In this document: positions 8,781 through 43,216 of the stretch, in pieces | Layout: each line of letters begins with the position of its first letter | How positions within the stretch are numbered: the first letter of the stretch is position 1 | Assembly (NCBI GenBank): GCA_965552055.1 | Contig: CBEVQO010000005.1 | Location: 13,373 to 77,372, forward strand | Reading direction: 5' to 3' | Source of the DNA: an uncultured bacterium | GTDB taxonomy: Bacteria > Hydrothermota > UBA3073 > NMUJ01 > CBEVQO01 | DNA: 64,000 nucleotides | Program-made: the position numbers and the translations under genes | The notes under the pieces: generated by a model | Seen by the model: the letters and a program-made list of their open reading frames with translations, nothing else | What the model was told of the DNA's origin: nothing | Databases searched by the model: none

Positions 8781-10499
8781 TTAAGATGGGAATGTAATTA
8801 TGAATTCTGTTCCTTCACCTACTTTGCTTTTTACATCTATTTTTCCATTATGTAAAAGCACAACATGTTTTACAATAGAAAGACCAAGTCCTGTTCCACC
8901 AAGTTTCTTGGAGCGAGATTTATCAACAACATAAAATCTTTCAAATATTCGGGGAAGATGCTCATCAGGAATGCCAATCCCTGTATCCCTTACGCTCACA
9001 ATTACTTTTTTATCCACTCTCTTTAAGGAAACAGTCACTTCTCCTTTCTCTGTGTATTTAATAGCATTATCTATTAAATTGATAAACAGTTGCTCCAATT
9101 TAAAAGGGTCTCCCTTTATTACAGGTTCGCCTTCACATATCAAATTCAATTTTAGCCCCTTTTCTTTTGCTTTTTGTTCAAATATTTTAAATACATTTTC
9201 TACTATGCACCTTAAATTTGCATTTTCCTTTATTTGGGTTAATCCTTTTTCTTCAAGTTCCGATAAGAGAAGCAAATCGTTAACAATATTTATAAGCCGT
9301 TCTGTATGCCGTTTTATAACCTCTAAATAATGTTTAGCATTACCTTCTATTTCTTCCTCTAAAGTTTCAATATACCCTTTTATAGCTGTAAGAGGCGTTC
9401 TTAACTCATGAGAAACATTTATCACAAAATCTTTCTTTATCCTTTCAAGTTTTTTAAATTCGGTAATATCATGCAAAACAATTATCAGCTCTTCCTTAGA
9501 AGGTATAATGACAAAACTCGCTAAAAATACTTTTCCATTCAATTCTATCTCTTCAGAAGATATTCTTTTTTCTCTCTTTACCTTCTCTATCAATTCTGCT
9601 ATCTTTGGATTTCTTAAAATTTCCCACCAGAATTTTCCTTCGGGATTTGTCTGGACAACTTTTTTGAAAGATTCATTAAAAAGAATGATTTTTCCTTCTT
9701 TATCCAGAACTAAAAGCCCTTCTTCAAGAAAAGAGATGATGCTATTTAATTCCTCTTGCTTCAATGATAAATCATTAAACAGACGCTTTAATTCTTCTGA
9801 CATTCTGTTGAAACTGCGAGCTAATTCTCCTATCTCATCTTCCCTTCTAAACATTACCTTCGTAGAAAAATCACCACCAGACAATTTTTTAAATGCCAAG
9901 GCAAGTTCTTTTAAAGGATGAGAAATATTTCTTGAAAAAAGGAAAGCTCCTATTAAAGATAGAAGTGTCACAAAAATTACAATCGCAAAAATTTTAAGCC
10001 TGAGGTTATTGAGCAATTTATTTATGTCCTTTAAAAATAAACTTACTCTTAAGATGCCCACGAAGTTTCCTTTTGACTTAACAGGTATCGCGACATATAG
10101 CATCTCTTCTTTCACTGTGGTGCTGAATCTTAAAGATTTACCGAAGCCTTTCTCTCTGGCTTGCTTGACCTCAGGTCTGTTGCTGTGGTTCTCCATTTGT
10201 CGAGGGTCTTTCTCTGAATCTGCCCAAACTTCACCAGAAGGTGCAATAACTGTGATCCTTGTCTTTATTTTTTTACCTACATTTTTAACAAGAGAATCTA
10301 AACCATTGTAATCTTTCCTCTCTATAAAAGGTAAAACTTGAGGTTTAAGTGCGTAAGCTAAATTTTTAAGTTCTAAAGACAGGGTGTTTATGTAATGATG
10401 CCTTATCGTTTTAAAAGAAAAAACGAACACAAGGATTGAAATCAAAAAAATGATTAAACAGAAGCAATAAAAGATTTTAAAGAATATGGATTTTTTCAT
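8781..10499 (-). CDS. Sensor histidine kinase, PhoR-like (periplasmic sensor, HAMP, PAS, HisKA, HATPase)
   Basis: Two TM segments flank a ~150-aa extracytoplasmic domain. H-box HELRTPL, N-box NLIDNAIKYT, G-boxes DTGIGIP and GGTGLGLSIVK. 4-nt overlap with the upstream response regulator. Confidence 0.8.
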   Translation of the reverse strand: MKKSIFFKIFYCFCLIIFLISILVFVFSFKTIRHHYINTLSLELKNLAYALKPQVLPFIERKDYNGLDSLVKNVGKKIKTRITVIAPSGEVWADSEKDPRQMENHSNRPEVKQAREKGFGKSLRFSTTVKEEMLYVAIPVKSKGNFVGILRVSLFLKDINKLLNNLRLKIFAIVIFVTLLSLIGAFLFSRNISHPLKELALAFKKLSGGDFSTKVMFRREDEIGELARSFNRMSEELKRLFNDLSLKQEELNSIISFLEEGLLVLDKEGKIILFNESFKKVVQTNPEGKFWWEILRNPKIAELIEKVKREKRISSEEIELNGKVFLASFVIIPSKEELIIVLHDITEFKKLERIKKDFVINVSHELRTPLTAIKGYIETLEEEIEGNAKHYLEVIKRHTERLINIVNDLLLLSELEEKGLTQIKENANLRCIVENVFKIFEQKAKEKGLKLNLICEGEPVIKGDPFKLEQLFINLIDNAIKYTEKGEVTVSLKRVDKKVIVSVRDTGIGIPDEHLPRIFERFYVVDKSRSKKLGGTGLGLSIVKHVVLLHNGKIDVKSKVGEGTEFIITFPS

Positions 10500-11176
10500 T
10501 CTTCTATTTTGTAGCCTATTCCTCTTACGCTTTTTATAAATTTCTTGGCTTTGCCTAATTTTTCTCTTAAATTCTTAATATGGACATCTACTGTCCTATC
10601 CAGAACAACTTTATCAATTCCCCATAATTTATCCAGAATCTGGTCCCTTGTAAATACCCAGCCTTTTCTTTCTGCCAGTATTTTTAGAATCCTGAATTCC
10701 GTTGGAGTTAAGTCCACTTTTTTATTTTCAACAAAGACTTCATATTTATTGAGGTCTATTACGAGGATATCACCTATTTTAATCTTTTTGCAGGTATCAT
10801 GCGGTGCTTTCCTTCTTAAGACTGCTTTTACTCTGGCAACTAACTCCCTTGGTGAGAAGGGCTTTGTCACATAATCATCTGCTCCCAGTTCCAGACCCAA
10901 AACTTTATCTGCTTCGGTAGTGCGTGCGGTAAGCATAATGATAGGAATAGATTTAAATTCATCTTTTGATTTTAGATACTTACAAACCTCAAAGCCATCC
11001 ATATCAGGAAGCATGAGATCCAAAATTATAAGGTCAGGTATCTGTGAGGATAAAAATTCGAAGAAATCTTCAGCATTCTGAAAGCATTTAACTTTAAAAC
11101 CATGCTTAGTGAGATGTAAAGATACAAGCTCTAAAATATCAGGCTCATCATCTATCACAGCTATTAATTCATTCAT
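10496..11176 (-). CDS. OmpR/PhoB-family response regulator (PhoB-like)
   Basis: Receiver domain (DDEPDIL, LDLMLPDMDGFEV, conserved Lys in YVTKPF) plus winged-helix output (LTPTEFRILKILAERKGWVFTRDQI). First gene of the phosphate cluster. Confidence 0.85.
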   Translation of the reverse strand: MNELIAVIDDEPDILELVSLHLTKHGFKVKCFQNAEDFFEFLSSQIPDLIILDLMLPDMDGFEVCKYLKSKDEFKSIPIIMLTARTTEADKVLGLELGADDYVTKPFSPRELVARVKAVLRRKAPHDTCKKIKIGDILVIDLNKYEVFVENKKVDLTPTEFRILKILAERKGWVFTRDQILDKLWGIDKVVLDRTVDVHIKNLREKLGKAKKFIKSVRGIGYKIEE

Positions 11177-11188
11177 CGCATTTCTCTA

Positions 11189-11215
11189 AACTTATTCAAT
11201 ATACAGGTATGTCAA
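11189..11215 (-). promoter_or_regulatory. sigma70-like promoter (TTGACA-N15-TAAGTT) for the Pho cluster; near-leaderless
   Basis: Minus-strand TTGACA 11215-11210 and TAAGTT 11194-11189. The ATG at 11176 lies about 12 nt after the -10 with no SD. Block is near-identical to 2372-2416. Confidence 0.45.
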
Positions 11216-11217
11216 CA

Positions 11218-11296
11218 ATTTTTAGCCCACCTCCCTATCCCCACCTCCCTATCCCCACCCCACAACCCATTGGTAATTAGCTCGCTTACGCTCGCA
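11218..11296 (-). repeat. Intergenic GC/G-tract-rich repeat, copy 2 (internal 14-bp tandem duplication)
   Basis: atttttagcccacctccctatccccacctccctatccccaccccacaacccattggtaattagctcgcttacgctcgca. Tandem 14-mer acctccctatcccc at 11229-11242 and 11243-11256. Lacks the hairpin block seen in copies 1 and 4. Confidence 0.5.
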
Positions 11297-11303
11297 TTTT
11301 TAC

Positions 11304-11331
11304 TTGACATCCTTAAAGATAAAATTATAAT
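11304..11331 (+). promoter_or_regulatory. sigma70-like promoter (TTGACA-N16-TATAAT) for the restriction-modification operon
   Basis: TTGACA 11304-11309 and TATAAT 11326-11331. The ATG at 11340 lies about 8 nt after the -10, so the AGGAG directly abutting the ATG is probably not a functional SD and the mRNA is likely leaderless. Confidence 0.5.
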
Positions 11332-11339
11332 TAAAGGAG

Positions 11340-12041
11340 ATGAATCTAAAGGAAGTTCAAAATAGACTTCAAGAAATTAAAAATAAAGGATTTGTGCCAT
11401 CTTTAAGAAGAGGAACAACAGGAATTGGATACACCTTTGAGATACTTTTTGGAATAAAGGAAAACAATATCCCAATCCCAGACATCGGCGGAAGAGTTGA
11501 AATTAAAACAATAAGAAGAGATTCGCAATCTTTAATAACATTATTTACTTTTAATAGAGGCGTCTGGCATATAAAGCAAAAAGAACTAATCAAAAAATAT
11601 GGATATGTTGATAAAAAGGGTAGATATGCATTAAAAAATACGGTTTTTTATGGCAAATCCATTCCACAAGGAATATCATTAGAAGTAGATGAAGATAAAA
11701 ACACTATTCATTTAGTTGATACGAATACAAAGAAAGTCCTTGCAACATGGGATGTTTATGTCATTGTCGGTATATTTATGACAAAATTGAGCAAATTATT
11801 ACTCGTAATAGCTGATAGAAAGAAAGAGAAAGGTAAAGAATATTTTCACTACAATGAAGCTTACCTTTTGACAGATCCCAGTGCTCGAAATTTTATAAAA
11901 GCATTTAAAAATTCCCTAATAGGCATTGATATTAGAATGCATCTAAAAGAAAGCGGAGAAGTTAGAAATAGAGGAACTGCATTCCGTATAAAAGAAAAGG
12001 ATTTATTAGAACTTTATGAAAATCGCAAGAAACTTATTTAA
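11340..12041 (+). CDS. Putative type II restriction endonuclease, MutH/MvaI/BcnI-like PD-ExK fold
   Basis: 233 aa with a candidate PD...ExK active site (IPIPDIGGRVEIKT) in a MutH-like arrangement. Stop is 2 nt before the SPPY methyltransferase gene. Confidence 0.5.
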   Translation: MNLKEVQNRLQEIKNKGFVPSLRRGTTGIGYTFEILFGIKENNIPIPDIGGRVEIKTIRRDSQSLITLFTFNRGVWHIKQKELIKKYGYVDKKGRYALKNTVFYGKSIPQGISLEVDEDKNTIHLVDTNTKKVLATWDVYVIVGIFMTKLSKLLLVIADRKKEKGKEYFHYNEAYLLTDPSARNFIKAFKNSLIGIDIRMHLKESGEVRNRGTAFRIKEKDLLELYENRKKLI

Positions 12042-12043
12042 AA

Positions 12044-13312
12044 ATGCCTGCAATTATGCATAGATTTAAAAAATATAGAGACAAAACATGGGATTTTCGT
12101 ATGGCGAATACAAAGCAATATACTCATTGTTTTCATTCTTATCCTGCAATGATGATACCGCAAGTCGCAGGACGCATTTTGGATGAATTTGGAAAAAATT
12201 CTAAACTTTTATTCGATCCATATTGCGGTACAGGAACTTCTTTAGTAGAAGCAAATTTAAGAGGCATAAATGCTATCGGCACAGACATTAACCCATTGGC
12301 TAGATTAATAGCTAAAGTTAAAACAACCATTATTCCTTTAAAATCTTTGGATTTATATATAAAAGATTTCAACGATTTTGTTCTTTCAATACGATTAGGA
12401 GGGAGAAAAGTTTCTCCTAAAATTCCTAATTTTAAAAATATCGATTATTGGTTCAAAAAAGAAACACAATATTGGCTCGCTGTCATTAAAGAATATATTG
12501 AAAAAATTGATAACGAAGATATTAGGGACTTCTTTAAAGTAGCATTTAGTGAAACAGTAAGAGAAGTATCGTTGACCCGAAATAGTGAATTTAAACTATA
12601 TAGAATGAGTGAAAAGCAAATAGAGAAATTTAATCCCGATGTTTTCTTTATAATGATGGAGAAATTAATAAGAAATAGAAATGGAATGGCAGAATATATC
12701 AAAATAAAAAAGAACAAAGCATCTTCTAAAATCTACGATTTTAACACAGTCTATGAGATTCCATTCGATATAATTCCACCAGAAAGTATAGATATCGTGG
12801 TAACTTCTCCACCATATGGTGATTCTAGAACCACAGTAGCATATGGACAATTTTCTCGACTCGCTAACCAATGGTTGGAATTTGAAGAAACTAACGAAGT
12901 AGATAAAAAGTCAATAGGTGGAGTAAGAAAGAAAGAATATAGAAATTTTAATGTTGAAGTGTTAGACAAAGTGCTATTTAAAATTGCACGAATAGATGAA
13001 AAAAGATTATATGATGTGATTTCATTTTACATAGACTATGAAAAATCCATAAATAATGTTGCTAAAGTTGTTAAAAAGGGCGGTATTGTAGCGTATGTAG
13101 TGGGTAATCGCAAGGTAAAGGGCATAGAAATTCCAAATGATGAAATAACCAAAGAATTTTTTGAAAGAAATGGCTTTAAGCATATTAAAACCATAATAAG
13201 AGAAATTCCAAATAAAAGGATGCCTAAAAGAAATAGTCCGAGCAATATAGCAGGAATAACGGATACAACTATGAATTACGAATACATTGTTATCTTGAGA
13301 AAAGAAAAATAA
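12044..13312 (+). CDS. DNA methyltransferase with SPPY motif IV (N4-cytosine/N6-adenine class, alpha-like order)
   Basis: AdoMet motif I FDPYCGTGTSLVEA near the N-terminus and motif IV VVTSPPYGD near residue 255, with the intervening region as presumptive target-recognition domain. Confidence 0.75.
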   Translation: MPAIMHRFKKYRDKTWDFRMANTKQYTHCFHSYPAMMIPQVAGRILDEFGKNSKLLFDPYCGTGTSLVEANLRGINAIGTDINPLARLIAKVKTTIIPLKSLDLYIKDFNDFVLSIRLGGRKVSPKIPNFKNIDYWFKKETQYWLAVIKEYIEKIDNEDIRDFFKVAFSETVREVSLTRNSEFKLYRMSEKQIEKFNPDVFFIMMEKLIRNRNGMAEYIKIKKNKASSKIYDFNTVYEIPFDIIPPESIDIVVTSPPYGDSRTTVAYGQFSRLANQWLEFEETNEVDKKSIGGVRKKEYRNFNVEVLDKVLFKIARIDEKRLYDVISFYIDYEKSINNVAKVVKKGGIVAYVVGNRKVKGIEIPNDEITKEFFERNGFKHIKTIIREIPNKRMPKRNSPSNIAGITDTTMNYEYIVILRKEK

Positions 13313-13318
13313 TTCTTT

Positions 13319-15679
13319 TCACTCATGCTCCTCAAAGCCTTTGAGTAATTCTGCCATTTCTCTCAGTTTCTGGTCAACGAGGTAATTTACGGTATCAGGT
13401 TCATAAGTGCCATCGGGCAAAAGTTTTCCCGCTTTTACACCCGTTAGCAATTCAATGCCTTCATCAATGGTTTTTATCGCATAAATATGAAATTTGCCAT
13501 CTTCAACTGCTTTAACAACTTCTTTATTCAACATTAGATTTTTGATATTCTGATAGGGTATAATCACTCCCTGTGTGCCAGTAAGCCCTTTTGCCTTGCA
13601 TACTCTGAAAAAGCCCTCGATTTTTTCGTTAACACCTCCTATTGGCTGTATCTCACCCCATTGATTCACAGAACCTGTAACAGCGAGGTCCTGACGGATA
13701 GGCAGTCCAGATAGGCACGATAAAAGTGCGTAAAGCTCCGTGCTCGAAGCACTATCACCTTCTATTTCTTCATACATCTGCTCAAAGCATATACTCGCAG
13801 AAAGAGAAAGCGGTTTATTATGTGCATATTTGCCAGCAAGATAAGCACTCAAAATCAAAACTCCTTTGCTGTGAATAGGACCACTCATTTCAATTTCACG
13901 CTCAATGTTTAAAATGCCCTTCTTACCCATATAAACCCTGGCAGTAACACGAACAGGATAGCCAAAAGAATAATCACCGAGCTCAACAACAGTCAAACCA
14001 TTCACCTGACCTACTTTTTTGCCTTCAACATCTATAAGTAATCTGCCTCTTTTTATTTCTTCGTGTATTTTTTCTTCTATCAAATTTACCCTGTAGCGCT
14101 TTTTCTCAAGTGCCTTTTCAACATGCTCTGCCGTCACATATTTACTGCCATCCTGTTCTGCCCAGAAACTCGCTTCAGTTATCACATCAACAACTTCTAT
14201 AAATTTTGTGGATAATTTATCCTGGTCTCCCGTTAACTCCGAGCCATATTCAAGTATGCGTGCTACACCAGATGGGTCAAAATGCTTCAAATTTTTATCC
14301 CTGCATTGTTTCGCAATAAACGAAATATAAGCATCAATATGCTCCTTTGTTCTCGGCATCTCTGTATCAAAATCCGCTTTCACTTTAAACAATTTTCTGA
14401 AATCTTCATCAAATTCATGTAAAAGATGATAAAGCAAAGGTGTACCAATCAAAATAACTTTAACATTATGAGGGATGGGTTCTGGACGCAATGTAACAAC
14501 AGGTGTCTGACGCAATTCCTCACCTATATTCTCAATCCTCAACTCCTTTGTCCTTATCGCACGCTTTAAGGCATCCCATACAAATGGATTTAAAAGGGCT
14601 TCTTTCGCCGGTATTATCAAAAAGCCACCATTAGCCCTGTGAAAAGCTCCGGGTTTTATCAAAGTAAAATGAGTTACGAGATTGCCATCAACACTTTTAT
14701 ACTCAATTCTCCCAAAAAGATTATAATATGTCGGATTTGGTTCAAAAACAAGGGGTGCATGAGATAAATGTGAATTATCAACAAAAACATTAACTTTTAA
14801 GTTAAAAAGAAAATCAGGCTCCTCTTCTCCTGAAAGTGATTTTATCTTTTCAGTAAATTGTGCAAGGTATTCTTTGACACCATCAAAATATTCTTTCAAT
14901 TTCTTATATTTCTGATATTTCGCTTTAAGTTGTTTCACATATCTTCCGACCACATTTTTTACAATCCATTCATCGAGCTGTTTTATTTCTTCTCTCATTA
15001 CATCGTCAATTTCATGTAGCTTATGGAAGGTTTCGTCGAGTTTTTCCTTTATATATGCTCCTGCTTTTTCAATTTTTTCTTTTTCCTTTTTCGGAAGGGC
15101 TTCGAGTTCTTCAAGTGTATATTGTGTGCCATCTTCTTTCAGTGGCACTGCAAAAAGACCTGCAGGACGCCTTAAAACTTCAAAATTATATTTGCGGGCT
15201 TCTTTTTGTAATGATTCTAAAATTTCGGATTTCTTAGCTTCATATTTCTCTTTTATCGTATTGACTTCACGAAAATACTCATCGGATTTGAAAAAATGAG
15301 GCAATTTCTTTTTGCATGCGATTATTAATTTCTCCATATCTTCTGCAAGTTCTTTCCCTTTGCCTTTATCAAGTTCAACAAAAATAGGTTCTTCTGGCTT
15401 TTTAAAATTAAAAAGATAACAATAATCCTTTGGCGGTGGTAATTTTTTTGCGTATTCTTCTACAAATGCACGAACAGTGGAAGTCCTGCCGGTGCCAGGC
15501 AATCCCGATACAAATATGTTAAAGCCATCGGCTTTGGTCTGCAGACCAAATTTTATAGCTTCTACTGCACGCTCCTGACCAATGGTGCCGGTAAGTGGTT
15601 TGACTTCTTCAGTACTCTTAAATTTAAATTGCGAAATATCATATTTTAATCTAAGTTTATCAGCACTTAATTTTTCCAT
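13319..15679 (-). CDS. Lon-like protease (LonB/LonC-type) with degenerate P-loop
   Basis: P-loop-like GLPGTGRTS (Arg in place of the Walker A Lys) and no clear hhhhDE Walker B. C-terminal Lon protease domain with EGDSASST (Ser) and FFRVCKAKG (Lys). ORF track starts at TTG 15751, but the first 24 codons are the intergenic repeat; the likely start is ATG 15677-15679 (MEKLSADK...). Confidence 0.7.
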   Translation of the reverse strand: MEKLSADKLRLKYDISQFKFKSTEEVKPLTGTIGQERAVEAIKFGLQTKADGFNIFVSGLPGTGRTSTVRAFVEEYAKKLPPPKDYCYLFNFKKPEEPIFVELDKGKGKELAEDMEKLIIACKKKLPHFFKSDEYFREVNTIKEKYEAKKSEILESLQKEARKYNFEVLRRPAGLFAVPLKEDGTQYTLEELEALPKKEKEKIEKAGAYIKEKLDETFHKLHEIDDVMREEIKQLDEWIVKNVVGRYVKQLKAKYQKYKKLKEYFDGVKEYLAQFTEKIKSLSGEEEPDFLFNLKVNVFVDNSHLSHAPLVFEPNPTYYNLFGRIEYKSVDGNLVTHFTLIKPGAFHRANGGFLIIPAKEALLNPFVWDALKRAIRTKELRIENIGEELRQTPVVTLRPEPIPHNVKVILIGTPLLYHLLHEFDEDFRKLFKVKADFDTEMPRTKEHIDAYISFIAKQCRDKNLKHFDPSGVARILEYGSELTGDQDKLSTKFIEVVDVITEASFWAEQDGSKYVTAEHVEKALEKKRYRVNLIEEKIHEEIKRGRLLIDVEGKKVGQVNGLTVVELGDYSFGYPVRVTARVYMGKKGILNIEREIEMSGPIHSKGVLILSAYLAGKYAHNKPLSLSASICFEQMYEEIEGDSASSTELYALLSCLSGLPIRQDLAVTGSVNQWGEIQPIGGVNEKIEGFFRVCKAKGLTGTQGVIIPYQNIKNLMLNKEVVKAVEDGKFHIYAIKTIDEGIELLTGVKAGKLLPDGTYEPDTVNYLVDQKLREMAELLKGFEEHE

Positions 15680-15846
15680 TTTTAGCCCCGCCTCCGCTGT
15701 CCCCACCTTCCCGATTAAGTCAGCCCACTCCTTACCCTTCTTTAAACGCAATCAGAAGATAAAGCGTAAACAACCCGAATAACCCACATCCCCGTAATGG
15801 GCTGACATATCAACCCTTATGTAATGTGCTCGGCTGCGCCGAGCAA
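15680..15846 (-). repeat. Intergenic GC/G-tract-rich repeat, copy 3 (divergent middle, perfect 7-bp palindrome)
   Basis: tttttagccccgcctccgctgtccccacc ... caacccttatgtaatgtgctcggctgcgccgagca. Shares 5' and 3' blocks with copies 1, 2 and 4; the middle carries inverted repeat GTCAGCCCA/TGGGCTGAC. Abuts the Lon-like start codon directly (GGGGCTAAAAATG). Confidence 0.45.
15828..15844 (-). terminator. Hairpin GCTCGGC-tgc-GCCGAGC just downstream of the membrane-protein gene stop
   Basis: Perfect 7-bp stem, 3-nt loop, 4 nt after the stop at 15849. Only a weak U-rich tail follows, so terminator function is uncertain; it is also the conserved 3' block of the repeat. Confidence 0.3.
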
Positions 15847-15848
15847 TA

Positions 15849-17042
15849 TTACTCTTTCTTCTCTTCCTCTTTCTTCTCCTCTTTCTTTTCTTCTTCCTTC
15901 TTTTCCTCTTCCTCTATCGGCAATTCTTCTTCGGGCTTCTCTTCAAGCAGGTCTTTTTCATCTTTAATCTTAACAAGGACAACATAAAAGAGAGTTTGAC
16001 CGGCACTCCATGTTGCTAAACCATATCCCGCTACAAACATGCCAATGAAGTGGAAGGATAAACCAGCGAGAAAGCCACCAATCCAGTCAGCCCAGGTAAG
16101 AGGCTTCATCCACTCAACGCCCCACAGCAATACAGGAAGATGGAACACTTTTGCACAAAGTATCTCAGCCCATGGTACTCTCGGACAGCGCGGCAGATAC
16201 CACAAACCATTATTCCACATCACTTCCCACCATCTATAAGCACCGAGCTCCGTATATCTCGTGCCAGACCATAAGTTGAGTGCCCAGTGCATCAAAATGA
16301 GTGCCTTCTTAACCAGCCAGCCAAGAATATACACACCTGCAAACGCTGCAAATGCTATGAAAATCTGCCACAGAACTGTACGCCATGTCTGGTCATTCAA
16401 CACACTGAATACCTCAAAAAGAGTATCAAATGCATCGCTCTCCGTAGTAGCAGTAACAGCAGGAGATACTATAAGCGATAAAAACCATACTATCGCAAGG
16501 TAAACAACAAATAGCGCTCCAAATGCTATCGGGATAAAGAGCAAACCCGTTATTATCTGTCCAGCATAGGGAATCCTTCCAACGAGTCCACAGAGAAAAC
16601 CAACAAGAATCAGGAAGCCAATGAGAAATGTAAGCACAAGAGGAGCACCTATCGTGCCTTTCCACTGCTTCATCGCAAATCTTATAGCCTCTGTTACTTC
16701 GTAAAATTCATTGCCCTTTAACTGCTCAAAGGTCATCTTGCTGATAGCACAAACCGTAGTAAGCAGTATGAATACTCCAGCCGATACCCCTATAACCCAT
16801 ATCACCCAGCTCCATGGTCGAAGATGAGTGCCAACTCCCTTTACAGGTATTATCACCCACGGAATATACCTGAACTCACGCCAGACCTCTTTCCATGTCC
16901 AGCCCGAGGTAACATACGCTACATAGGCCAGTATAGAGTACACAACCGTCGCACTCAGTATCCCCAGGAACGCGATCCAGATTTTTTTAGCAGAGAACCC
17001 AAGACGAGGCGCCCTGACTACATCTGCAAAACCCCACTTCAT
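15849..17042 (-). CDS. Trp-rich polytopic membrane protein with acidic/basic (EEKK)n C-terminal tail
   Basis: Multiple hydrophobic helices; 26 Trp in 397 aa; tail ...EEKKEEEKKEEKKEEEKKE. Begins 12 nt after the trpS stop, so probably co-transcribed. Confidence 0.5.
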   Translation of the reverse strand: MKWGFADVVRAPRLGFSAKKIWIAFLGILSATVVYSILAYVAYVTSGWTWKEVWREFRYIPWVIIPVKGVGTHLRPWSWVIWVIGVSAGVFILLTTVCAISKMTFEQLKGNEFYEVTEAIRFAMKQWKGTIGAPLVLTFLIGFLILVGFLCGLVGRIPYAGQIITGLLFIPIAFGALFVVYLAIVWFLSLIVSPAVTATTESDAFDTLFEVFSVLNDQTWRTVLWQIFIAFAAFAGVYILGWLVKKALILMHWALNLWSGTRYTELGAYRWWEVMWNNGLWYLPRCPRVPWAEILCAKVFHLPVLLWGVEWMKPLTWADWIGGFLAGLSFHFIGMFVAGYGLATWSAGQTLFYVVLVKIKDEKDLLEEKPEEELPIEEEEKKEEEKKEEKKEEEKKE

Positions 17043-19107: not shown

Positions 19108-19140
19108 GGAATAAAATTTTGAGATTTTTAAAATTTTAGC

Positions 19141-19169
19141 TTGACAAATTGATATTTTGAATATTATAT
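19141..19169 (+). promoter_or_regulatory. rRNA operon promoter P1
   Basis: agcTTGACAaattgatattttgaatattatat: -35 TTGACA at 19141-19146 with a TAtnaT-like -10 15-17 nt downstream. Confidence 0.5.
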
Positions 19170-19207
19170 AAGTGGGTTCTTTGGATTGAAAAAGTGAAAA
19201 AAGAAGC

Positions 19208-19237
19208 TTGACAAATTGGGATTTTTGATAATATAAT
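19208..19237 (+). promoter_or_regulatory. rRNA operon promoter P2 (tandem duplicate of P1)
   Basis: agcTTGACAaattgggatttttgataatataat: TTGACA 19208-19213, TATAAT-like 19231-19237. The ~67-bp unit agcttgacaaattg...ttctttg is repeated from P1. Confidence 0.55.
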
Positions 19238-19261: not shown

Positions 19262-20818
<1,557 letters not shown>

Positions 20819-20851
20819 TTTCTCTCCGGGCAGCACACTTTATTTTTTTAT

Positions 20852-20923
<72 letters not shown>

Positions 20924-20924
20924 T

Positions 20925-20996
20925 GGGGATGTAGCTCAGTGGGAGAGCGCCTGCTTTGCAAGCAGGAGGTCAGGGGTTCGAATCCCCTCATCTCCA
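20925..20996 (+). tRNA. tRNA-Ala (anticodon TGC)
   Basis: Acceptor GGGGAUG/CAUCUCC with G3:U70, anticodon loop UUUGCAA, T-loop GGTTCGAAT. Separated from tRNA-Ile by 1 nt. CCA not encoded. Confidence 0.9.
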
Positions 20997-21040
20997 TGGG
21001 AAGCGATTTAGTTCTTTGACAATCAAGGCAGATGAGCATC

Positions 21041-24047
<3,007 letters not shown>

Positions 24048-24087
24048 GATGCTCATCTGCCTACTTTGTAATTAACCTGTTTTTAAC

Positions 24088-24157
24088 GCCCCGACCGCCT
24101 TCTTAATATTGTCCCTTAGAGGACCTGTGTAAGAATAAGGGGTCGGGGCTTTTTTTT
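24088..24157 (+). terminator. Rho-independent terminator of the rRNA operon (long nested hairpin plus T8)
   Basis: gccccgacc (24088-24096) pairs with ggtcggggc (24141-24149), with inner complementary segments ttctta/taagaa and gtcc/ggac, followed by 8 T at 24150-24157. Confidence 0.6.
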
Positions 24158-24160
24158 ATT

Positions 24161-24266
24161 ACGAGCGATAGCGAGTTTATTACATAAGGGTCTTTTGTCA
24201 CACCCCGACCGAAGGGAGGGGTGTGCACATGGGAAGGTGGGGACTGGGAGGAGGGGCTAAAAATAA
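24161..24266 (+). repeat. Intergenic GC/G-tract-rich repeat, copy 4 (opposite genomic orientation)
   Basis: Reverse complement reads tttttagcccctcctcccagtccccaccttcccatgtgcacacccctcccttcggtcggggtgtgacaaaagacccttatgtaataaactcgctatcgctcgt, colinear with copy 1. Oriented toward the downstream plus-strand promoter. Confidence 0.5.
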
Positions 24267-24273
24267 TTTTTAC

Positions 24274-24300
24274 TTGACTTTGTGACTTTCCTGTTATAAT
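24274..24300 (+). promoter_or_regulatory. sigma70-like promoter (TTGACT-N15-TATAAT) for the downstream envelope gene cluster
   Basis: TTGACT 24274-24279, TATAAT 24295-24300. The first ORF start (GTG 24307) lies 7 nt after the -10. Confidence 0.45.
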
Positions 24301-24306
24301 AAATAG

Positions 24307-38086: not shown

Positions 38087-40768
38087 ATGATGGTGATTTT
38101 AATTTTCATACTGGGAACATTAATTGACTCTGCAGGTGGCAAATGTATAATTTCGCCGAAAGAGGATTTTGTAATTAAGGTGACACCCTTTTTATGGATA
38201 AAAATAGAAGATTTACCCGAAATTGTAAAGGAAGCCATAGATTCTGCTCCTTCCTGGCTTCGAGGTCGCTTAACTTTGAATTTTATGAAAATGTACGGTC
38301 AATGTCAAGAAGTTTATGCTGGACTTATTCTTTCTGTTGATAAAAGTTATCGTGATGAAATTGCTTTTCAGATAGCAACGCTTGACCCCCTTATCCTTTA
38401 TCATTATGTAGGTGACCCTTCGCTCTTTGTAGAAAATGTGAAGTTGATTTATAAAAGCGATAGTTTACTCGATTATGTTGAGCTTGTGGAGTATCCAGAA
38501 TATACAACCTGCAGATATAGAATATCTGACCATGGGAAAGATACTTTTGAGATTGAGATTCCGAAAGAGATTTATTACTGGGATATTGTTCATCCTGTAA
38601 TTGGCTGGGAGGCTCCTCTTTATATTGACCCGAAGGTACCTGACCCTTATCATACAGGTGCAGGGGAAGCGCCTCCGCCCCGTGGACATTTCTGGCGCGA
38701 ATATTATCTCTTTTATCCTGATACCGTTGAAAGTACAGTGATATCGGATAATGGTAAAGATACAGTTAAAGAAGGATATGTTTGCACTCCTTTAAAAGAC
38801 CTGTTAAAGGATGAAAAAATATTATGGGCGATGAAGAAAGATACAATAGAAGGTAACGGTGCAATAGGTAAACTTACTCAATGGGTTAAAGATGTTATGG
38901 TTTTTAACTCTGGTAGTGAGCGTCCCTGGCAGCCTGTTCGTGTTTATCACATGCATATGGGGAGGTGTGGTGAGCATGGGCATATTACTGGAGCAGCTGC
39001 AAGAGCAGCTCTTATACCTGCAACTTATATTTTGACACTTTGCAATGACCATGTATGGAATGAATTTTATGACGAAGAATGGCATACATGGGAGCCTGTA
39101 AACACTTATATAAATCATCCTGAAAGCTATGATAACTGGTGGAGCGGAAAGGCAGTGTTACCCTTTGCTTTCAGAGGCGACGGATGCATTATCGATGTTA
39201 CACAAAGATACACCCCGCATTGTACTCTTACCGTGTTTGTTGCAGATAGCGTGGGTAATCCGGTTGATGGTGCATGTGTAAAACTTTATGCAACACATAT
39301 TTATGGTGGGACTTATATATGCGGATGGCATTACACAAATACAGATGGATTGGCAAGATTTATAATCGGTGATAATGTAAGTTATTACATAAAAATAGAA
39401 TCAGACATTGGTAACTATCCTTCAAGTGGAAGTATGCAGATAATAACGATTTCGCAACCAGATACTCATTATTATTATGAGCATTATTTTGATGAATTTT
39501 TACCGCAATTAAATGCAGAAAGTACCCAAATAACAGAACCTGTAGAATATCGAGTTGAGATAACATTTAAACTTGAGGATGAATATACAGAAGCACAAAC
39601 TTTGTTTTCGAATGAACTGGGAGTTGCGCAAAAGTGGTTTAAAAAAGGGTTGCCAAAAATAAACTTTTTCATTTGTGATGAGGAGAATTATAAAAAATAT
39701 CTTGAAGGTGAAAATTTTGATGCTGTTTACATTGCAAAAAATGTAGATTCGGGATATGTGTCTTTTCAATTTCCAGTGCCTCATCTTACAAATTGGTACA
39801 TTGTTTTTATGAATAAAAATAAATGCAAGACTTATGAACTTCTTGAATTTGAAGTGAAGAGCTATCAATTAACTTCAGTAGCACATATTAAAGTTGAGAA
39901 AGCAGTTTATGATTTTGGGACAGTTATAGCAGGTAAATTTTCACAGGATACAATGTGGATTTATAACATTGGACTTGGTGACTTAAAAGTTGATAGTATA
40001 AAATTAATTTCAAATGTTTTTGATTTTGATGATAATTTGCCTTATATGCTTTCCTCGCATGATAGTGTGGGTGTTTTATTATATTTTGCTCCAGAAGATA
40101 CAGGTATTTTTTGTGATACTTTGTTTATTTATTCAGATGACATTGATGCCCAAGAGTTACCGGTAGTTTTGGTTGGTGAGAGTAGAGTGCCCGATATTGA
40201 GTTTGCAGATAGTGTGTGTGATTTTGGTACGGTATCCATAGGCCAAACTGTTTATAAAAGAGAAAAAGTGTGGAATTGCGGGAGTTATCCTTTAAAAATT
40301 GACAGTGTTATCTCGACGAGCAATTCATTTGGTGTTTACTCTCCTTCTTTTCCACAACAGTTAGAAGAGGGTGATACTCTCGAGATGATAATTTATTGTT
40401 CGCCACGGGATACGGGAATTCTTGAAGGCGAGTTTTTGTTCTATTCAAATGATCCCGATGAAAATCCAGCTGTGTTAAAATTAACGGCAAGGGGATATGG
40501 TCTTCAGGAAAAGTTAGGCAGTTTTTATGTGAAATACAATCCAAATCCCTGTAAGGATTTCTGTGTTATTACTTATTATTTGCCAAGAGAAGAAAAAGTT
40601 AGTTTAAAGATATATGATGTATGTGGCAGATGTGTTGAAAAAATTAATTCTTTTGAGAAAACAGGCATTCACAAAATTTTTATTAAAGATTTGCCATCGG
40701 GAGTGTATTTCTGCGAGTTTAAAGCAATGAAAAAATTGCATAGATTTAAGATAATCTTTATAAGATGA
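38087..40768 (+). CDS. Secreted transglutaminase-like domain protein with Ig-like domains and T9SS C-terminal sorting domain
   Basis: Transglutaminase-like core GRCGEHGHITGAAARAALIPATYILTLCNDHVWNEFYDEEWHTWEP (Cys/His). DUF1573-like Ig modules (YDFGTV...NIGLGDLKVDSI). C-terminal tail KIYDVCGRCV...GVYFCEF...FKIIFIR typical of T9SS sorting domains. Confidence 0.6.
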   Translation: MMVILIFILGTLIDSAGGKCIISPKEDFVIKVTPFLWIKIEDLPEIVKEAIDSAPSWLRGRLTLNFMKMYGQCQEVYAGLILSVDKSYRDEIAFQIATLDPLILYHYVGDPSLFVENVKLIYKSDSLLDYVELVEYPEYTTCRYRISDHGKDTFEIEIPKEIYYWDIVHPVIGWEAPLYIDPKVPDPYHTGAGEAPPPRGHFWREYYLFYPDTVESTVISDNGKDTVKEGYVCTPLKDLLKDEKILWAMKKDTIEGNGAIGKLTQWVKDVMVFNSGSERPWQPVRVYHMHMGRCGEHGHITGAAARAALIPATYILTLCNDHVWNEFYDEEWHTWEPVNTYINHPESYDNWWSGKAVLPFAFRGDGCIIDVTQRYTPHCTLTVFVADSVGNPVDGACVKLYATHIYGGTYICGWHYTNTDGLARFIIGDNVSYYIKIESDIGNYPSSGSMQIITISQPDTHYYYEHYFDEFLPQLNAESTQITEPVEYRVEITFKLEDEYTEAQTLFSNELGVAQKWFKKGLPKINFFICDEENYKKYLEGENFDAVYIAKNVDSGYVSFQFPVPHLTNWYIVFMNKNKCKTYELLEFEVKSYQLTSVAHIKVEKAVYDFGTVIAGKFSQDTMWIYNIGLGDLKVDSIKLISNVFDFDDNLPYMLSSHDSVGVLLYFAPEDTGIFCDTLFIYSDDIDAQELPVVLVGESRVPDIEFADSVCDFGTVSIGQTVYKREKVWNCGSYPLKIDSVISTSNSFGVYSPSFPQQLEEGDTLEMIIYCSPRDTGILEGEFLFYSNDPDENPAVLKLTARGYGLQEKLGSFYVKYNPNPCKDFCVITYYLPREEKVSLKIYDVCGRCVEKINSFEKTGIHKIFIKDLPSGVYFCEFKAMKKLHRFKIIFIR

Positions 40769-40798: not shown

Positions 40799-43141
40799 AT
40801 GAAGAAGTGTGTTTTAATACTATGTGTATTTTGGGGTCTATTAATGGCTAATGCCGATGCTGAGAAATGGGTTGTGGATACTTCTGGTGTAGAGGGCGAA
40901 TCTTTACAGGTGGCGATAGATAAAGCATGGAATGACCCTGGAATTGATACTGTAGTGGTTAAAAACGGGAAATATCATCTTGCTATAAATGGCGATACGG
41001 GTTTAATAATGCGAGATTCTGTTGTATTGATAAGCGAAGGTGGTGCGTACAAATGCACACTTACAGCAATAAAAGAAGATTTCAGTGACACTGCATGGCA
41101 TGTGATTTTTTGTGATACAAGTGGCTTCAAAGATACTGCATCTCATGCAGCACTGATAAAAGGTTTTACAATAAAAGATGGCAAGACAGAGTTCGGTTCT
41201 CCACCGCACAACCAAGGTGGAGGCATTTTCTTATACAGGGCTTCTCCTGTTATTGAATCATGCAATATTGTTTACAATACCGCCTACAATGGAGCAGGCA
41301 TTTACATTGAATATGCTTCACCTATATTGAGGGATAACATAATAGCGCATAATTATGCTTACTATTTTTGCGGAGGCGTTCATATTGCTGACCATTCCTC
41401 ACCTTATTTAAGCGGTAACATTATAAAAGATAACTCGGGATATTATGCAGGTGGTATTTGCATTATAGGTTATTCAAGACCTGAATTGTGCAATAATATT
41501 ATAGAAAAGAATTGGGCGGGTGCTCTTGGTGCGGGCATTTATATCCTTGCTTCTTCTTCAGCAACTCTAAATAATAACATTATTAAAAACAATCATGCCG
41601 ATTATAAAGGAGGCGGTATTTGCATTTTGCAAAATTCTTCCGCGATATTAAGGGCTAGCATTATAAAGGGCAATAGTGTTTATCACCATGGTGGTGCTTT
41701 ATGCATAGGTAAAAATTCTTGGTGTGTGCTTTCGAATAATGTTATTATCGATAATAAAGCTCGTGATTATGGTGGATGTGTTTTTATTTGTGATAATGCT
41801 TCTCTTTTGATGAAAAATTGTGTTATTGCGATGAACAAAGCACTGGAAGGCGGGGTAATATTTGAAAGTTGTTCAAGCAAAACTGTAATTGATTCGTGTT
41901 TTATAATTGATAATGGCAGTCATTCTTCGCGCACGGGTCTTGCATTCATTGATAGCACTGCGGATTCAGGTGTGACATTTAAAATTTCAAATTCAAATGT
42001 TTATTATAATACCTATCAGCCCGATACCGAGATTTATAACTTATCGAGTGTTATGATAGATTTAAAGAACAATTTCTGGTGGGATACAACCGATAGTGAA
42101 ATATCATCATTGATTTACGGCTTAAATGACCATTCTAACTGGCGAAAAGATTTTGTGTCTGGTGTGCCAGGTGAGCCTCTTCAAGTTGATTCTGTAAAAG
42201 TGTATATTGATTCGATGTATTCTGAATTAGCCGATAACATATGGGAACCATGCACCCTTTATTTGAGATTATTCGGCAGAGATAGATTAAGGAATGTGAA
42301 AGAAATAGCCATTGCCATCGTTAAGACATCCATTTACCAGGTAGGGATTGCTGTTAGTTTGTTAGAAACGGATACTTCATCTGGAATATACGAGGGTGAA
42401 ATTTATGTGAAGGAAGTTACAGGAAAGGATACCATTCAAACTGATGATATTTATCAAAGAATAAAGGTTGATTCAATATGGGATACGATAATTGTTTTTC
42501 CTAACATTGATGTTACAAAGAGATACCGTGTAATTTACAAAGGTCCTGATATTGATGTATCTTATAAGAATTATGATTTTGGAAGTATAAATGTTGGAGA
42601 TAGTGCTGATTTTGAATTTTACTGCATGAATAAAGGTATTGCGAATCTTATAATTGATAGTGCAAAAGTAGATTCACCTTTCTTTGTAGTTTCTCCTGTA
42701 TTACCTTGCAGTATCGGGAGTGGTGATAGTGTAAAAATGGTTGTAAGATTTATCCCGCGTGATACGGGCAACTATACGGATACACTTAAAATTTATTCCA
42801 ATGACCCGAATGAACAGGTGATTTATATTTTGCTATCAGGTAGCGCTGTTTCGCCTTTTGTAAAAGAAATAAAACCTGTTAGATTCGAATTTAAAGGCGT
42901 GACCCCCAATCCTTTATGCAATCACGGTAAAATTCATTATGCTGTTCCTGAGAAATCGCACATTAATATAAGAATATATGATGTCACCGGTAGATTCATC
43001 AAAGAAATTATCAATGAAGAAAGTTCACCTGGCTTTTATGATGTTGAATTCAAAATTAATTTACCGGAAGGCGTTTACTTCATCGTAATGGAAGCTGACA
43101 AATTCAAATCGATTCGCAAATTTCTGGTAATAAAATGGTGA
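40799..43141 (+). CDS. Secreted right-handed parallel beta-helix repeat protein with T9SS C-terminal sorting domain
   Basis: Signal peptide; more than 8 repeats of ~23 aa of the form NNII.(D/N)N...GGGI.I.; Ig-like module (YDFGSINVGDSADFEF); tail RIYDVTGRFIKEI...GVYFIVMEADKFKSIRKFLVIKW. Confidence 0.6.
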   Translation: MKKCVLILCVFWGLLMANADAEKWVVDTSGVEGESLQVAIDKAWNDPGIDTVVVKNGKYHLAINGDTGLIMRDSVVLISEGGAYKCTLTAIKEDFSDTAWHVIFCDTSGFKDTASHAALIKGFTIKDGKTEFGSPPHNQGGGIFLYRASPVIESCNIVYNTAYNGAGIYIEYASPILRDNIIAHNYAYYFCGGVHIADHSSPYLSGNIIKDNSGYYAGGICIIGYSRPELCNNIIEKNWAGALGAGIYILASSSATLNNNIIKNNHADYKGGGICILQNSSAILRASIIKGNSVYHHGGALCIGKNSWCVLSNNVIIDNKARDYGGCVFICDNASLLMKNCVIAMNKALEGGVIFESCSSKTVIDSCFIIDNGSHSSRTGLAFIDSTADSGVTFKISNSNVYYNTYQPDTEIYNLSSVMIDLKNNFWWDTTDSEISSLIYGLNDHSNWRKDFVSGVPGEPLQVDSVKVYIDSMYSELADNIWEPCTLYLRLFGRDRLRNVKEIAIAIVKTSIYQVGIAVSLLETDTSSGIYEGEIYVKEVTGKDTIQTDDIYQRIKVDSIWDTIIVFPNIDVTKRYRVIYKGPDIDVSYKNYDFGSINVGDSADFEFYCMNKGIANLIIDSAKVDSPFFVVSPVLPCSIGSGDSVKMVVRFIPRDTGNYTDTLKIYSNDPNEQVIYILLSGSAVSPFVKEIKPVRFEFKGVTPNPLCNHGKIHYAVPEKSHINIRIYDVTGRFIKEIINEESSPGFYDVEFKINLPEGVYFIVMEADKFKSIRKFLVIKW

Positions 43142-43172
43142 TAAAAATTGATAAAAATTTTTAATTTTTAGC

Positions 43173-43199
43173 TTGACAAAGTCAAAATTTGATTAAAAT
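43173..43199 (+). promoter_or_regulatory. sigma70-like promoter (TTGACA-N15-TAAAAT) for the giant surface-protein gene
   Basis: agcTTGACAaagtcaaaatttgatTAAAAT, then SD AGGAGG at 43206-43211 and ATG at 43217. Confidence 0.5.
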
Positions 43200-43216
43200 A
43201 GATAAAGGAGGTTGTT

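Follow-up and report, generated by a model that had tools for sequence, protein, structure and literature searches.

A probable LonC-subfamily Lon-like protease with a degenerate ATPase site next to a type II restriction-modification pair in an uncultured bacterium

The sole characterised LonC proteins are MtaLonC from Meiothermus taiwanensis and TTC1975 from Thermus thermophilus (MEROPS S16.007; PDB 4FW9, 4FWD, 7EUY and 8K8V). Both are devoid of ATPase activity and degrade unfolded substrates only, and MtaLonC still binds ATPγS in isothermal titration calorimetry (PMC3391209). The subfamily is marked by insertion 1 in the α3-β9 loop, with the consensus CX3GLX(G/E), and by insertion 2 in helix α5, with the consensus φ-X2-A-φ, where φ is written phi in full (Liao 2012, PMC3391209). 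Cryo-EM of MtaLonC revealed only phosphate in the P-loop, described a helical-hairpin extension (HHE) with a β-hairpin hook, and assigned a dual protease/chaperone function to the protein (PMC13069640). The archaeal LonB proteases, represented by TonLonB from Thermococcus onnurineus (PDB 3K1J), lack the two LonC insertions and have canonical Walker A and B motifs, ATPase activity and a membrane anchor. LonA proteases (E. coli Lon, MtaLonA, LONP1) are ring-forming quality-control enzymes with a large N-terminal substrate-binding domain, canonical AAA+ motifs and the active-site context PKDGPSAG, in which Pro precedes the catalytic Ser; an Asp at that position is typical of LonB and LonC. BrxL (PDB 8EMH) combines a Lon_C-type C-terminal domain with an AAA+-like ring module and can occur at defence loci.

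Here, we analysed a 64,000-nucleotide stretch of DNA (the window), in which an uninterrupted open reading frame runs from 13319 to 15751 on the minus strand. The encoded protein is very probably a soluble Lon-like protease of the LonC subfamily, of the MtaLonC/TTC1975 kind (MEROPS S16.007 type), with a mechanism that can be proposed by homology and with no relation to the restriction-modification (R-M) genes beside it. The features discussed below are as follows, with residues counted from the ATG at 15679.

11340-13312, plus strand: type II R-M pair, consisting of an MvaI/BcnI-family restriction endonuclease (11340-12041) and an N4/N6 DNA methyltransferase (12044-13312)
13319-15679, minus strand: LonC-family Lon-like protease coding sequence, 786 aa, from ATG 15677-15679 to stop codon TGA 13319-13321
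13505-13519, minus strand: LonC-specific insertion 2, VVKAV (V721-V725)
13577-13600, minus strand: LonC-specific insertion 1, CKAKGLTG (C694-G701)
13622-13624, minus strand: catalytic Lys686 (AAA) in GGVNEKIEG
13751-13753, minus strand: catalytic Ser643 (AGT) in EGDSASST, preceded by Asp642
14600-14629, minus strand: vestigial Walker B, GGFLIIPAKE (residues 351-360)
14918-15361, minus strand: HHE (residues ~107-254), within the AAA-like α/β domain between the Walker A-like and Walker B-like motifs
15479-15505, minus strand: degenerate P-loop (Walker A-like), GLPGTGRTS (residues 59-67)
15680-15848, minus strand: non-coding leader formed by an intergenic modular repeat (repeat families D4 and I11), supported by alignment with other gene-upstream regions and by an inter-strain frameshift indel inside it

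The protein displayed the Pfam architecture AAA_32, LonB_AAA-LID, LonC_helical and Lon_C. Its closest relatives are 55% and 81% identical, and the best GTDB species match is 52% identical. The original prediction had called it an ATP-independent Lon-like enzyme of the LonC type and had proposed alignment with LonA, LonB, LonC and BrxL references; the comparison, judged by bit scores and TM scores, bore the call out, with MtaLonC closest in both sequence and fold. A phmmer search against the PDB returned MtaLonC (4fwd) at E 8e-104 and 351.6 bits, TonLonB at 5e-36 and 127.4 bits, and LonA at ~32 bits. The AF2 model had an overall pLDDT of 83, with low confidence at residues 547-643, the N-terminal part of the protease domain, and its top Foldseek match was full-length MtaLonC (8k8v; E 1e-46, TM 0.77/0.84). 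TonLonB was the second-best match in sequence and fold (TM 0.52/0.70), and the Foldseek TMq values were 0.77 for MtaLonC, 0.52 for TonLonB, ~0.23 for LonA and 0.17 for BrxL.

With MtaLonC, the protein shares the domain order (degenerate P-loop, HHE, Walker B-like strand, LID, Lon protease domain), a Ser-Lys dyad spaced by 43 residues, the Asp ahead of the Ser, both LonC insertions, and the lack of a catalytic Glu and of a transmembrane segment. No 19-residue Kyte-Doolittle window in the protein exceeded 1.13, which is below 1.6. Identity to the characterised LonC proteins is 26-28%, and the host appears to be an organism of low GC content (38%) with T9SS-type secreted proteins rather than a Deinococcus-Thermus thermophile. 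Other Lon classes were considered and rejected. The likeness to archaeal LonB extends to AAA_32, LonB_AAA-LID, the GDSA context and the lack of a LonA-type N-domain, but the NCBIfam equivalog TIGR00764 reached 184.5 bits, with its cut-off at 516.6, the motifs are not canonical, and a soluble hairpin sits where LonB has its transmembrane insertion. The protease domain is homologous to the Ser-Lys domain of LonA, but LonA references matched only the last ~100 residues (E ~1e-7 to 1e-5), LonA models matched residues 640-743 only and far below cut-off, and Asp rather than Pro precedes Ser643. The models for the Bacillus sporulation LonB and LonC (TIGR02902 and TIGR02903) also scored far below their cut-offs, so the protein is not "LonC" in that sense.

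All three motifs quoted in the original prediction were found in the protein, at residues 59-67 (GLPGTGRTS), 640-647 (EGDSASST) and 690-698 (FFRVCKAKG). Ser643, in its B/C-type active-site context, aligns with S582 of MtaLonC and is invariant in all 120 closest database homologues and in 123 of 124 related loci. The catalytic Lys had been sought in FFRVCKAKG, but that Lys sits in LonC-specific insertion 1; the catalytic residue is K686, at Ser643+43, which corresponds to MtaLonC K625 (S582+43) and is equally invariant (120/120 homologues, 123/124 loci). Insertion 1 fits its consensus, and its signature residues are conserved in nearly all of the 120 homologues (C694 in 120, G698 in 119, L699 in 113 and G701 in 120). 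Insertion 2 likewise fits its consensus and aligns with VLEAV of MtaLonC; A724 is kept in 118 of the 120. The dyad spacing, both insertions, the HHE and the degenerate AAA+ motifs, together with the closeness to MtaLonC, are the features by which the protein falls within LonC.

Degeneracy of the ATPase site was scored on the Walker A and Walker B motifs. R65 (codon AGG, 15485-15487) occupies the canonical Walker A Lys position and aligns with the Lys of GPPSLGKHE in MtaLonC, where the Lys is kept but the Ser/Thr is lost. The Arg is genuine rather than a read error, because two independent assemblies (P0122 and P0121) carry identical GLPGTGRTS and GGFLIIPAKE segments. As a distinctive substitution, which is how it had first been presented, it did not hold up: Arg is the majority residue in the family at ~55%, with 66 Arg and 54 Lys in the 120 homologues and 66 Arg and 53 Lys in 119 loci. 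The glycine-rich loop GxxGxG[KR][TS][ST] is well kept in homologues and loci alike, and in the homologues G59, G62 and G64 are invariant and position 65 is always Lys or Arg. An Arg in ~55% of the family within an invariant glycine-rich loop suggests that the site is kept for ligand binding rather than for hydrolysis. In these respects the protein shows ordinary family traits, the Arg P-loop being, by the sequences compared, the commoner state in the LonC family.

The original prediction saw no canonical Walker B. The canonical acidic residues are indeed gone, but a vestigial segment, GGFLIIPAKE, can be located by its alignment with GGYLILDAL, the Walker B-like motif of MtaLonC (Liao 2012). 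P357 stands at the position of the Mg-coordinating Asp, which MtaLonC retains, and A358 at that of the catalytic Glu, which is Ala in 109 of the 120 homologues. The Asp position is variable (D/Q/N/H/P). One extra residue relative to MtaLonC follows the Walker B-like strand, the family-conserved acidic E360 (Walker B +3), with Asp or Glu in 118 of 120 homologues and 113 of 126 loci. The Walker A and B residues seemed to pair in the 120 closest database homologues, where Arg occurred with Asp, Lys occurred with Asn, Gln or His, and Lys with Asp never occurred. In 126 independent loci, however, Lys with Asp was found twice and Arg was found with N, Q, P, D or E; the pairing dissolves there, and it was treated as clade structure rather than as functional coupling.

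Between the two Walker-like motifs, the HHE is modelled as two long helices (residues 107-163 and 197-254) with a β-hairpin at the tip (166-171/174-180), at pLDDT ~80-95. Pfam LonC_helical matched at residues 85-118 with 45.7 bits against a cut-off of 24, and the structure matched 4fwv and 8k8v. The extension is ~26 residues longer than in MtaLonC and is charged rather than hydrophobic (40% charged residues).

Might the departures from canonical motifs reflect a decaying or inactive enzyme, or a sequencing error? The degenerate ATPase motifs fit such a reading, as does a Walker B Pro that is unique among the 120 closest database homologues, but we regard it as barely credible. The reading frame of 786 codons is unbroken, homologues at 50% identity share the dyad and ~150 further columns without exception, and the independent assemblies agree, with only 4 substitutions in 786 aa. 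Pro357 is also not a unique feature, since Pro occupies that position in 16 of 126 loci; its combination with Arg65 recurs in 13 other loci, and the AF2 model is confident. Conversely, the protein could be a functional ATP-dependent protease of the LonB type, with Arg65 in the role of the Walker A Lys and catalysis taken on by a different acidic residue such as E360. The preserved GxxGxG[KR][TS][ST] loop, the acidic residue at Walker B +3 and the ATPγS binding of MtaLonC all speak for it. This is nevertheless quite improbable, given that Pro and Ala stand in place of the Walker B Asp and the catalytic Glu, that the LonB equivalog reaches 184 bits where 517 are needed, that no membrane anchor is present and that the nearest homologues to have been characterised lack ATPase activity. 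In P-loop NTPases generally, moreover, a Lys-to-Arg change in Walker A normally abolishes hydrolysis.

The genomic setting had suggested a third reading, in which the protease belongs to a small defence island, either as a BrxL-like effector or as an accessory or regulator of the type II R-M pair. The pair itself is bona fide (Pfam MvaI_BcnI at 3.5e-43 and N6_N4_Mtase; PADLOC REase_II at 1.4e-24 and MTase_II at 1.7e-138) and is convergent with the LonC gene, as predicted, with 6 nt between the two stop codons; the arrangement is tail-to-tail, not back-to-back as the original prediction also had it. Lon-like domains are known in BREX systems, in BrxL, and PADLOC gave a weak mad8 match (E 1e-3), which was dismissed since it covers the P-loop region only. 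The proposed likeness to BrxL failed on direct comparison: no BrxL model matched, the family was absent from the PADLOC matches at E<=0.01, and the 8emh structure was remote (TMq 0.16-0.17, 10-11% identity), ranking below all LonA, LonB and LonC structures and differing in architecture. The BREX partners PglX, PglZ and BrxA/B/C are missing here; the annotated part of the window (~1-43 kb) held no BREX genes and no defence genes other than the R-M pair, and the genes flanking LonC in 80 related loci encoded no BREX proteins.

Nor is the linkage to R-M genes found in relatives, where a check of the neighbourhood had been suggested. Homologues of the endonuclease and methyltransferase lie beside LonC in 0 of 127 related loci, no window neighbour recurs beside LonC in those 127, and among 80 species-level loci no family is a constant neighbour, the commonest being a generic ABC ATPase in 15 of the 80. 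The 136 adjacent genes of relatives match 195 different Pfam families and are heterogeneous housekeeping genes, with few PADLOC matches, mostly to generic IscS/HtrA/radical-SAM enzymes. The closest relatives (55% and 81% identical) have metabolic neighbours; the 81%-identical one carries an aldehyde-dehydrogenase-like gene and membrane-protein genes downstream and has no R-M genes. In the window, LonC is surrounded by Pst/PhoU/PhoR-PhoB genes, a two-component system, a membrane protein, TrpRS and an rRNA operon, and the region is core chromosome. The defence reading is thereby largely refuted, and we consider it most improbable. We judge the R-M pair to be an unrelated neighbour that is not functionally part of LonC; it may be a lineage-specific insertion, and its placement beside LonC is, as far as the compared loci indicate, peculiar to the genome studied. 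Composition gave no decisive sign of horizontal acquisition: the GC content of the pair (0.30; GC3 0.21-0.23) is somewhat below that of its neighbours (GC3 0.27-0.33 in flanking genes).

At its other end, the gene is preceded by its own leader. The annotated TTG start (15749-15751) lies inside the intergenic repeat and is spurious, and the ATG at 15677-15679, proposed earlier as the true start, is backed by the repeat, by homologue starts and by an inter-strain indel. Homologue starts fall 0-4 residues ahead of its Met in 85 of 120 cases, and a sister strain carries a frameshifting indel within the supposed N-terminal extension, while downstream of the ATG only 4 of 786 residues differ. Alignment of gene-upstream regions placed the same modular repeat (15680-15848) upstream of three other genes. 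Directly past the stop of the upstream gene comes a GC hairpin, TGCTCGGC-GCA-GCCGAGCA, followed by TTACATAAGGGTTG and a promoter-like box, TTGTTTACG..., and a G-rich tract, GGGAAGGTGGGGACAGCGGAGGCGGGGCTAAAA, abuts the ATG of the LonC gene. The pattern GGAGGNGGGGCTAAAAA occurred 3 times, where 0.02 matches were expected. Scans for promoters and terminators near the LonC gene returned none above shuffled expectation, and the promoter-like box is a proposal made solely by homology to the repeat upstream of the other genes. LonC is a chromosomal proteostasis gene that stands alone behind a leader of its own.

For the LonC-type protease we therefore infer ATP independence, phosphate binding and a chaperone/protease function from homology. 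Because identity to the sole characterised LonC proteins is this low, its biochemical properties are extrapolated. Subunits would assemble into oligomeric rings, with a degradation chamber built from the C-terminal domains, and the Ser643-Lys686 dyad would cleave polypeptides that are unfolded or only loosely folded. The AAA-like module at the N-terminus would no longer be a motor, with both acidic residues of its Walker B replaced (by Pro357 and Ala358) and Arg65 in place of the Walker A Lys; it would be retained as a ring scaffold that carries the long helical-hairpin extension. Jointly, these extensions may shape a basket for catching unfolded substrates, with the capacity to serve as a holdase chaperone. 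The P-loop, which is under strong selection with its three invariant Gly and always Lys or Arg at position 65, would most likely bind phosphate/anion or nucleotide without hydrolysis and in this way stabilise or tune the assembly of the ring. The large ~800-aa LonC clade has a nucleotide site unlike that of MtaLonC, with Arg or Lys in the P-loop and a conserved acidic residue at Walker B +3 that MtaLonC lacks, and its hairpin extension is longer; a residual nucleotide-dependent activity is therefore possible. It is also conceivable, although we think it unlikely, that the strongly conserved but non-hydrolytic P-loop of this clade is a phosphate/nucleotide sensor which switches the ring between protease and chaperone assemblies, with Arg-type and Lys-type sites tuned to different ligands. 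Equally unlikely, in our view, is that convergent-transcription interference at the 6-nt tail-to-tail junction with the R-M operon links R-M expression in this genome to the induction of LonC under stress.

These results allow the gene to be confidently annotated as a LonC-family (ATP-independent) Lon-like protease starting at ATG 15679, and it should be left out of any tally of defence genes. The discovery value is small, with modest by-products for Lon specialists. The "eight members" given under MEROPS S16.007 greatly understate both the size and the spread of the LonC family, which yields more than 5,700 database matches in many phyla of bacteria and archaea.

The LonC gene lies in an uninterrupted reading frame on the minus strand (13319-15751; 810 codons counted from a TTG), and all the strings quoted in the original prediction were found in its product. 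Numbering from the ATG at 15677-15679, GLPGTGRTS spans residues 59-67, EGDSASST 640-647 and FFRVCKAKG 690-698. That this ATG is the true start, as had been proposed, was confirmed by the leader repeat, the homologue starts and a sister-strain indel. The 169 nt from the stop codon of the upstream gene to the ATG form a modular repeat that also lies 5′ of three other window genes, an RnfC-like gene (1048-2370), the gene of a PhoB-like regulator (10496-11176) and an SLBB gene (from 24307), and the G-rich tract of the LonC copy (...GGAGGCGGGGCTAAAA) directly adjoins the ATG. Among the 120 closest database homologues, 85 start 0-4 residues ahead of the column of the LonC Met. Further, the annotated N-terminus of the sister-strain protein P0122 is another reading frame of the upstream DNA in the window, indicating a 1-nt indel within the supposed N-terminal extension and, therefore, a stretch free of coding constraint. 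The copies of the repeat are as follows.

2372-2540, modular intergenic repeat upstream of a minus-strand gene
11176-11340, modular intergenic repeat upstream of a minus-strand gene
15680-15848, modular intergenic repeat upstream of a minus-strand gene (LonC)
24130-24306, modular intergenic repeat upstream of the plus-strand gene at 24307

The four genes behind this repeat family are unrelated. The repeat combines a GC hairpin, the conserved TTATTACATAAGGGTTG, a ACACCCCGAC...GGGGTGT hairpin, the G-rich tract GGGNGGTGGGGAYAGGGAGGNGGGGCTAAAAA, whose sense strand may form a G-quadruplex, and a promoter-like box, TTGTTGACA; the order of these modules in the LonC copy is unlike that in the other copies. 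The repeat had no match in Rfam; it might serve as a regulatory leader, or represent a REP-like element or MITE. The 53 nt directly 5′ of the RnfC-like and PhoB-like response regulator genes (2372-2424 and 11176-11228) are 94% identical, which suggests that the two genes share a promoter or an operator; with the pst-phoU genes adjacent, this might be a control region of the Pho type.

The assignment of the protein to the LonC type was borne out by Pfam, by sequence and fold matches to MtaLonC from Meiothermus taiwanensis, and by the published features of the family. Pfam identified AAA_32 (LonB-like AAA), LonB_AAA-LID, LonC_helical and Lon_C, each above the gathering threshold. The top match among PDB sequences, by a wide margin, was MtaLonC/TTC1975 (4FWD, 7EUY, 8K8V; E 8e-104, 351 bits), although the identity to MtaLonC is only 26-28%, followed by archaeal TonLonB (E 5e-36), while LonA proteins matched at about 1e-7 and only over the last ~100 residues. 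Scores against the archaeal LonB equivalog, the LonA models and the Bacillus sporulation LonB/LonC models were far under the cut-offs. An AlphaFold2 model built from 20 homologues (mean pLDDT 83, pTM 0.71) contains very long helices at 107-163 and 197-254 with a beta-hairpin (166-180) at the tip, which is the helical-hairpin extension and its 'hook' known from MtaLonC. In a Foldseek search against the PDB, this model matched full-length MtaLonC (8K8V; E 1.3e-46, TM 0.77/0.84) and TonLonB (TM 0.52/0.70), and gave a TMq of 0.17 with 11% identity for the BREX protein BrxL (8EMH). The protein is soluble by sequence, as its highest 19-residue hydropathy window is 1.13 and its inserted region is 40% charged.

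Following the definition of LonC by Liao et al. 2012 (PMC3391209), we located Ser643 within GDSA, preceded by Asp, which is the B/C-type context, and Lys686 within GGVNEK, exactly 43 residues further on, the same spacing as in the S582/K625 dyad of MtaLonC. Both residues are invariant in the 120 homologues and present in 123 of 124 related loci. The protein also carries the LonC helical insertion, insertion 1 (consensus CX3GLX(G/E)) as C694-KAK-G-L-T-G701 and insertion 2 (consensus phi-X2-A-phi) as VVKAV at 721-725. The Lys of FFRVCKAKG, taken at first for the catalytic one, falls in insertion 1 and is thus not the dyad Lys, which is Lys686. Taken together, the gene is an ordinary member of the LonC family and was correctly spotted as such. 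The family comprises at least 5,702 database clusters at E<1e-10 from many bacterial and archaeal phyla; the top 120 database homologues all have the same four Pfam domains, and the best match in the species-representative genome set is 52% identical.

The neighbouring restriction-modification (R-M) genes are genuine and form a type II pair (11340-13312), convergent with LonC and with stop codons 6 nt apart.

11340-12041, type II restriction endonuclease of the MvaI/BcnI family
12044-13312, N4/N6 methyltransferase

However, the idea of a defence island found no support besides this adjacency. PADLOC BrxL models did not match the LonC protein, and tblastn of the endonuclease, the methyltransferase, TrpRS and the upstream 397-aa membrane protein against 127 LonC loci gave no match in any. 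Of the closest relatives with context, those at 55% identity have LonC surrounded by genes for PRPP synthetase, transketolase and OTCase; in another, with 81% identity across the last 220 residues, an aldehyde-dehydrogenase-like gene and membrane-protein genes follow, not R-M. When all flanking ORFs of 80 species-level loci were clustered (up to 10 kb per side), the largest neighbour family reached at most 15 loci, the commonest being generic ABC ATPases and two-component proteins. The 136 genes directly adjoining LonC matched 195 Pfam families, most often XerC/D-like recombinases (6) and lipid A acyltransferases (5), and their few PADLOC matches were mostly generic IscS-, HtrA- and radical-SAM-type enzymes. 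The lower GC3 of the R-M genes (0.21-0.23 versus 0.27-0.33 in neighbours) is compatible with an insertion, without being decisive. Nothing beyond convergent adjacency supports a functional link between LonC and R-M.

The surroundings of LonC in the window are core chromosome, with genes for RnfC, PhoU-PstBACS, an ECF sigma factor, PhoR/PhoB-like proteins, TrpRS and the cell envelope, and a 16S-tRNAIle-tRNAAla-23S operon that is complete over 19266-24049.

19266-20818, 16S rRNA
20851-20924, tRNA-Ile(GAT)
20924-20997, tRNA-Ala(TGC)
21041-24049, 23S rRNA

ORFs listed at 20391-23916 lie inside this operon and are spurious; no 5S was detected downstream of the 23S at the gathering threshold. Promoter-like direct repeats (…AGCTTGACAAATTG…TATA) occur in two copies 5′ of the 16S (19113-19235) and in one copy (43145-43200) 5′ of a giant ORF (43217-51430; 2,737 aa) with internal tandem repeats of ~890 nt (families D1, D5, D8, D9). 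Two large secreted proteins with Por_Secre_tail (T9SS C-terminal sorting) domains are encoded at 38087-40768 and 40799-43141, and they point towards a host that is FCB-group-like or from a related candidate phylum. The gene directly upstream of LonC (15849-17042, minus strand) encodes a multi-pass membrane protein of 397 aa whose C-terminal tail is rich in Glu and Lys; Pfam, NCBIfam and PADLOC assigned it to no family, other loci have no homologue of it next to LonC, and its GC (0.455, with a GC3 of 0.455) is clearly above the window mean of 0.381 and that of its neighbours.

The Arg in the P-loop is genuine. GLPGTGRTS and GGFLIIPAKE are the same in two independent entries from other assemblies, the fragment P0121 and P0122 (817 aa as annotated, differing at 4 of 786 residues), ruling out a sequencing artefact. 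A Walker B had been thought not evident, which does not hold: GFLIIPA aligns with the Walker B-like GYLILDA of MtaLonC, placing Pro357 at the Asp and Ala358 at the catalytic Glu position. The Lys-to-Arg change proved unremarkable, as Arg is found in ~55% of family members: of the 120 closest homologues, 66 have Arg and 54 have Lys, with the three glycines invariant, and in a second, independent sample of 126 loci, drawn from species-representative genomes and metagenomes and covering the site in 119 cases, the counts are 66 and 53. The Walker B Glu position is Ala in 109/120 homologues, and the Asp position varies (N/Q/H/P/D/S/E). Pro occurs there in 16 of the 126 loci, 13 of them also with Arg, indicating that Arg plus Pro is a recurrent family state. 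An apparent Arg-Asp/Lys-Asn covariation in the 120-homologue sample was not borne out in the 126 loci and was put down to clade structure.

MtaLonC and TTC1975 are heat-shock proteins with chaperone activity that lack ATPase activity and degrade unfolded substrates only (PMC3391209), and in cryo-EM of MtaLonC the P-loop contained no ligand other than a phosphate ion, and the protein switched between two assemblies, a hexamer acting as protease and a heptamer acting as chaperone (PMC13069640). Given that both Walker B acids are gone and Arg replaces the Walker A Lys, the window protein would be predicted to lack ATPase activity at least as completely as MtaLonC. The invariant glycine-rich loop and the obligatory basic residue speak for retention of the P-loop within the ring scaffold as an element that binds anions or nucleotides. 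This mechanism would be carried over from MtaLonC and TTC1975 by homology, at 26-28% identity to the former. Genes for Hsp20 and for universal stress proteins are each found no more than 10 kb from LonC in about 5/80 loci (e.g. 9192-9653 in locus L029 and 13546-14010 in locus L003), a weak hint of a stress/proteostasis context that fits the heat-shock MtaLonC and is too infrequent to be called conserved. Three positions beyond the Walker B Asp position, 118/120 proteins and 113/126 loci have D or E (E360 here); this acidic residue is conserved in the ~800-aa clade, whereas it is deleted in MtaLonC. Together with Arg in ~55% of members, this conserved acid suggests that the ~800-aa clade may be biochemically unlike the Thermus and Meiothermus enzymes.
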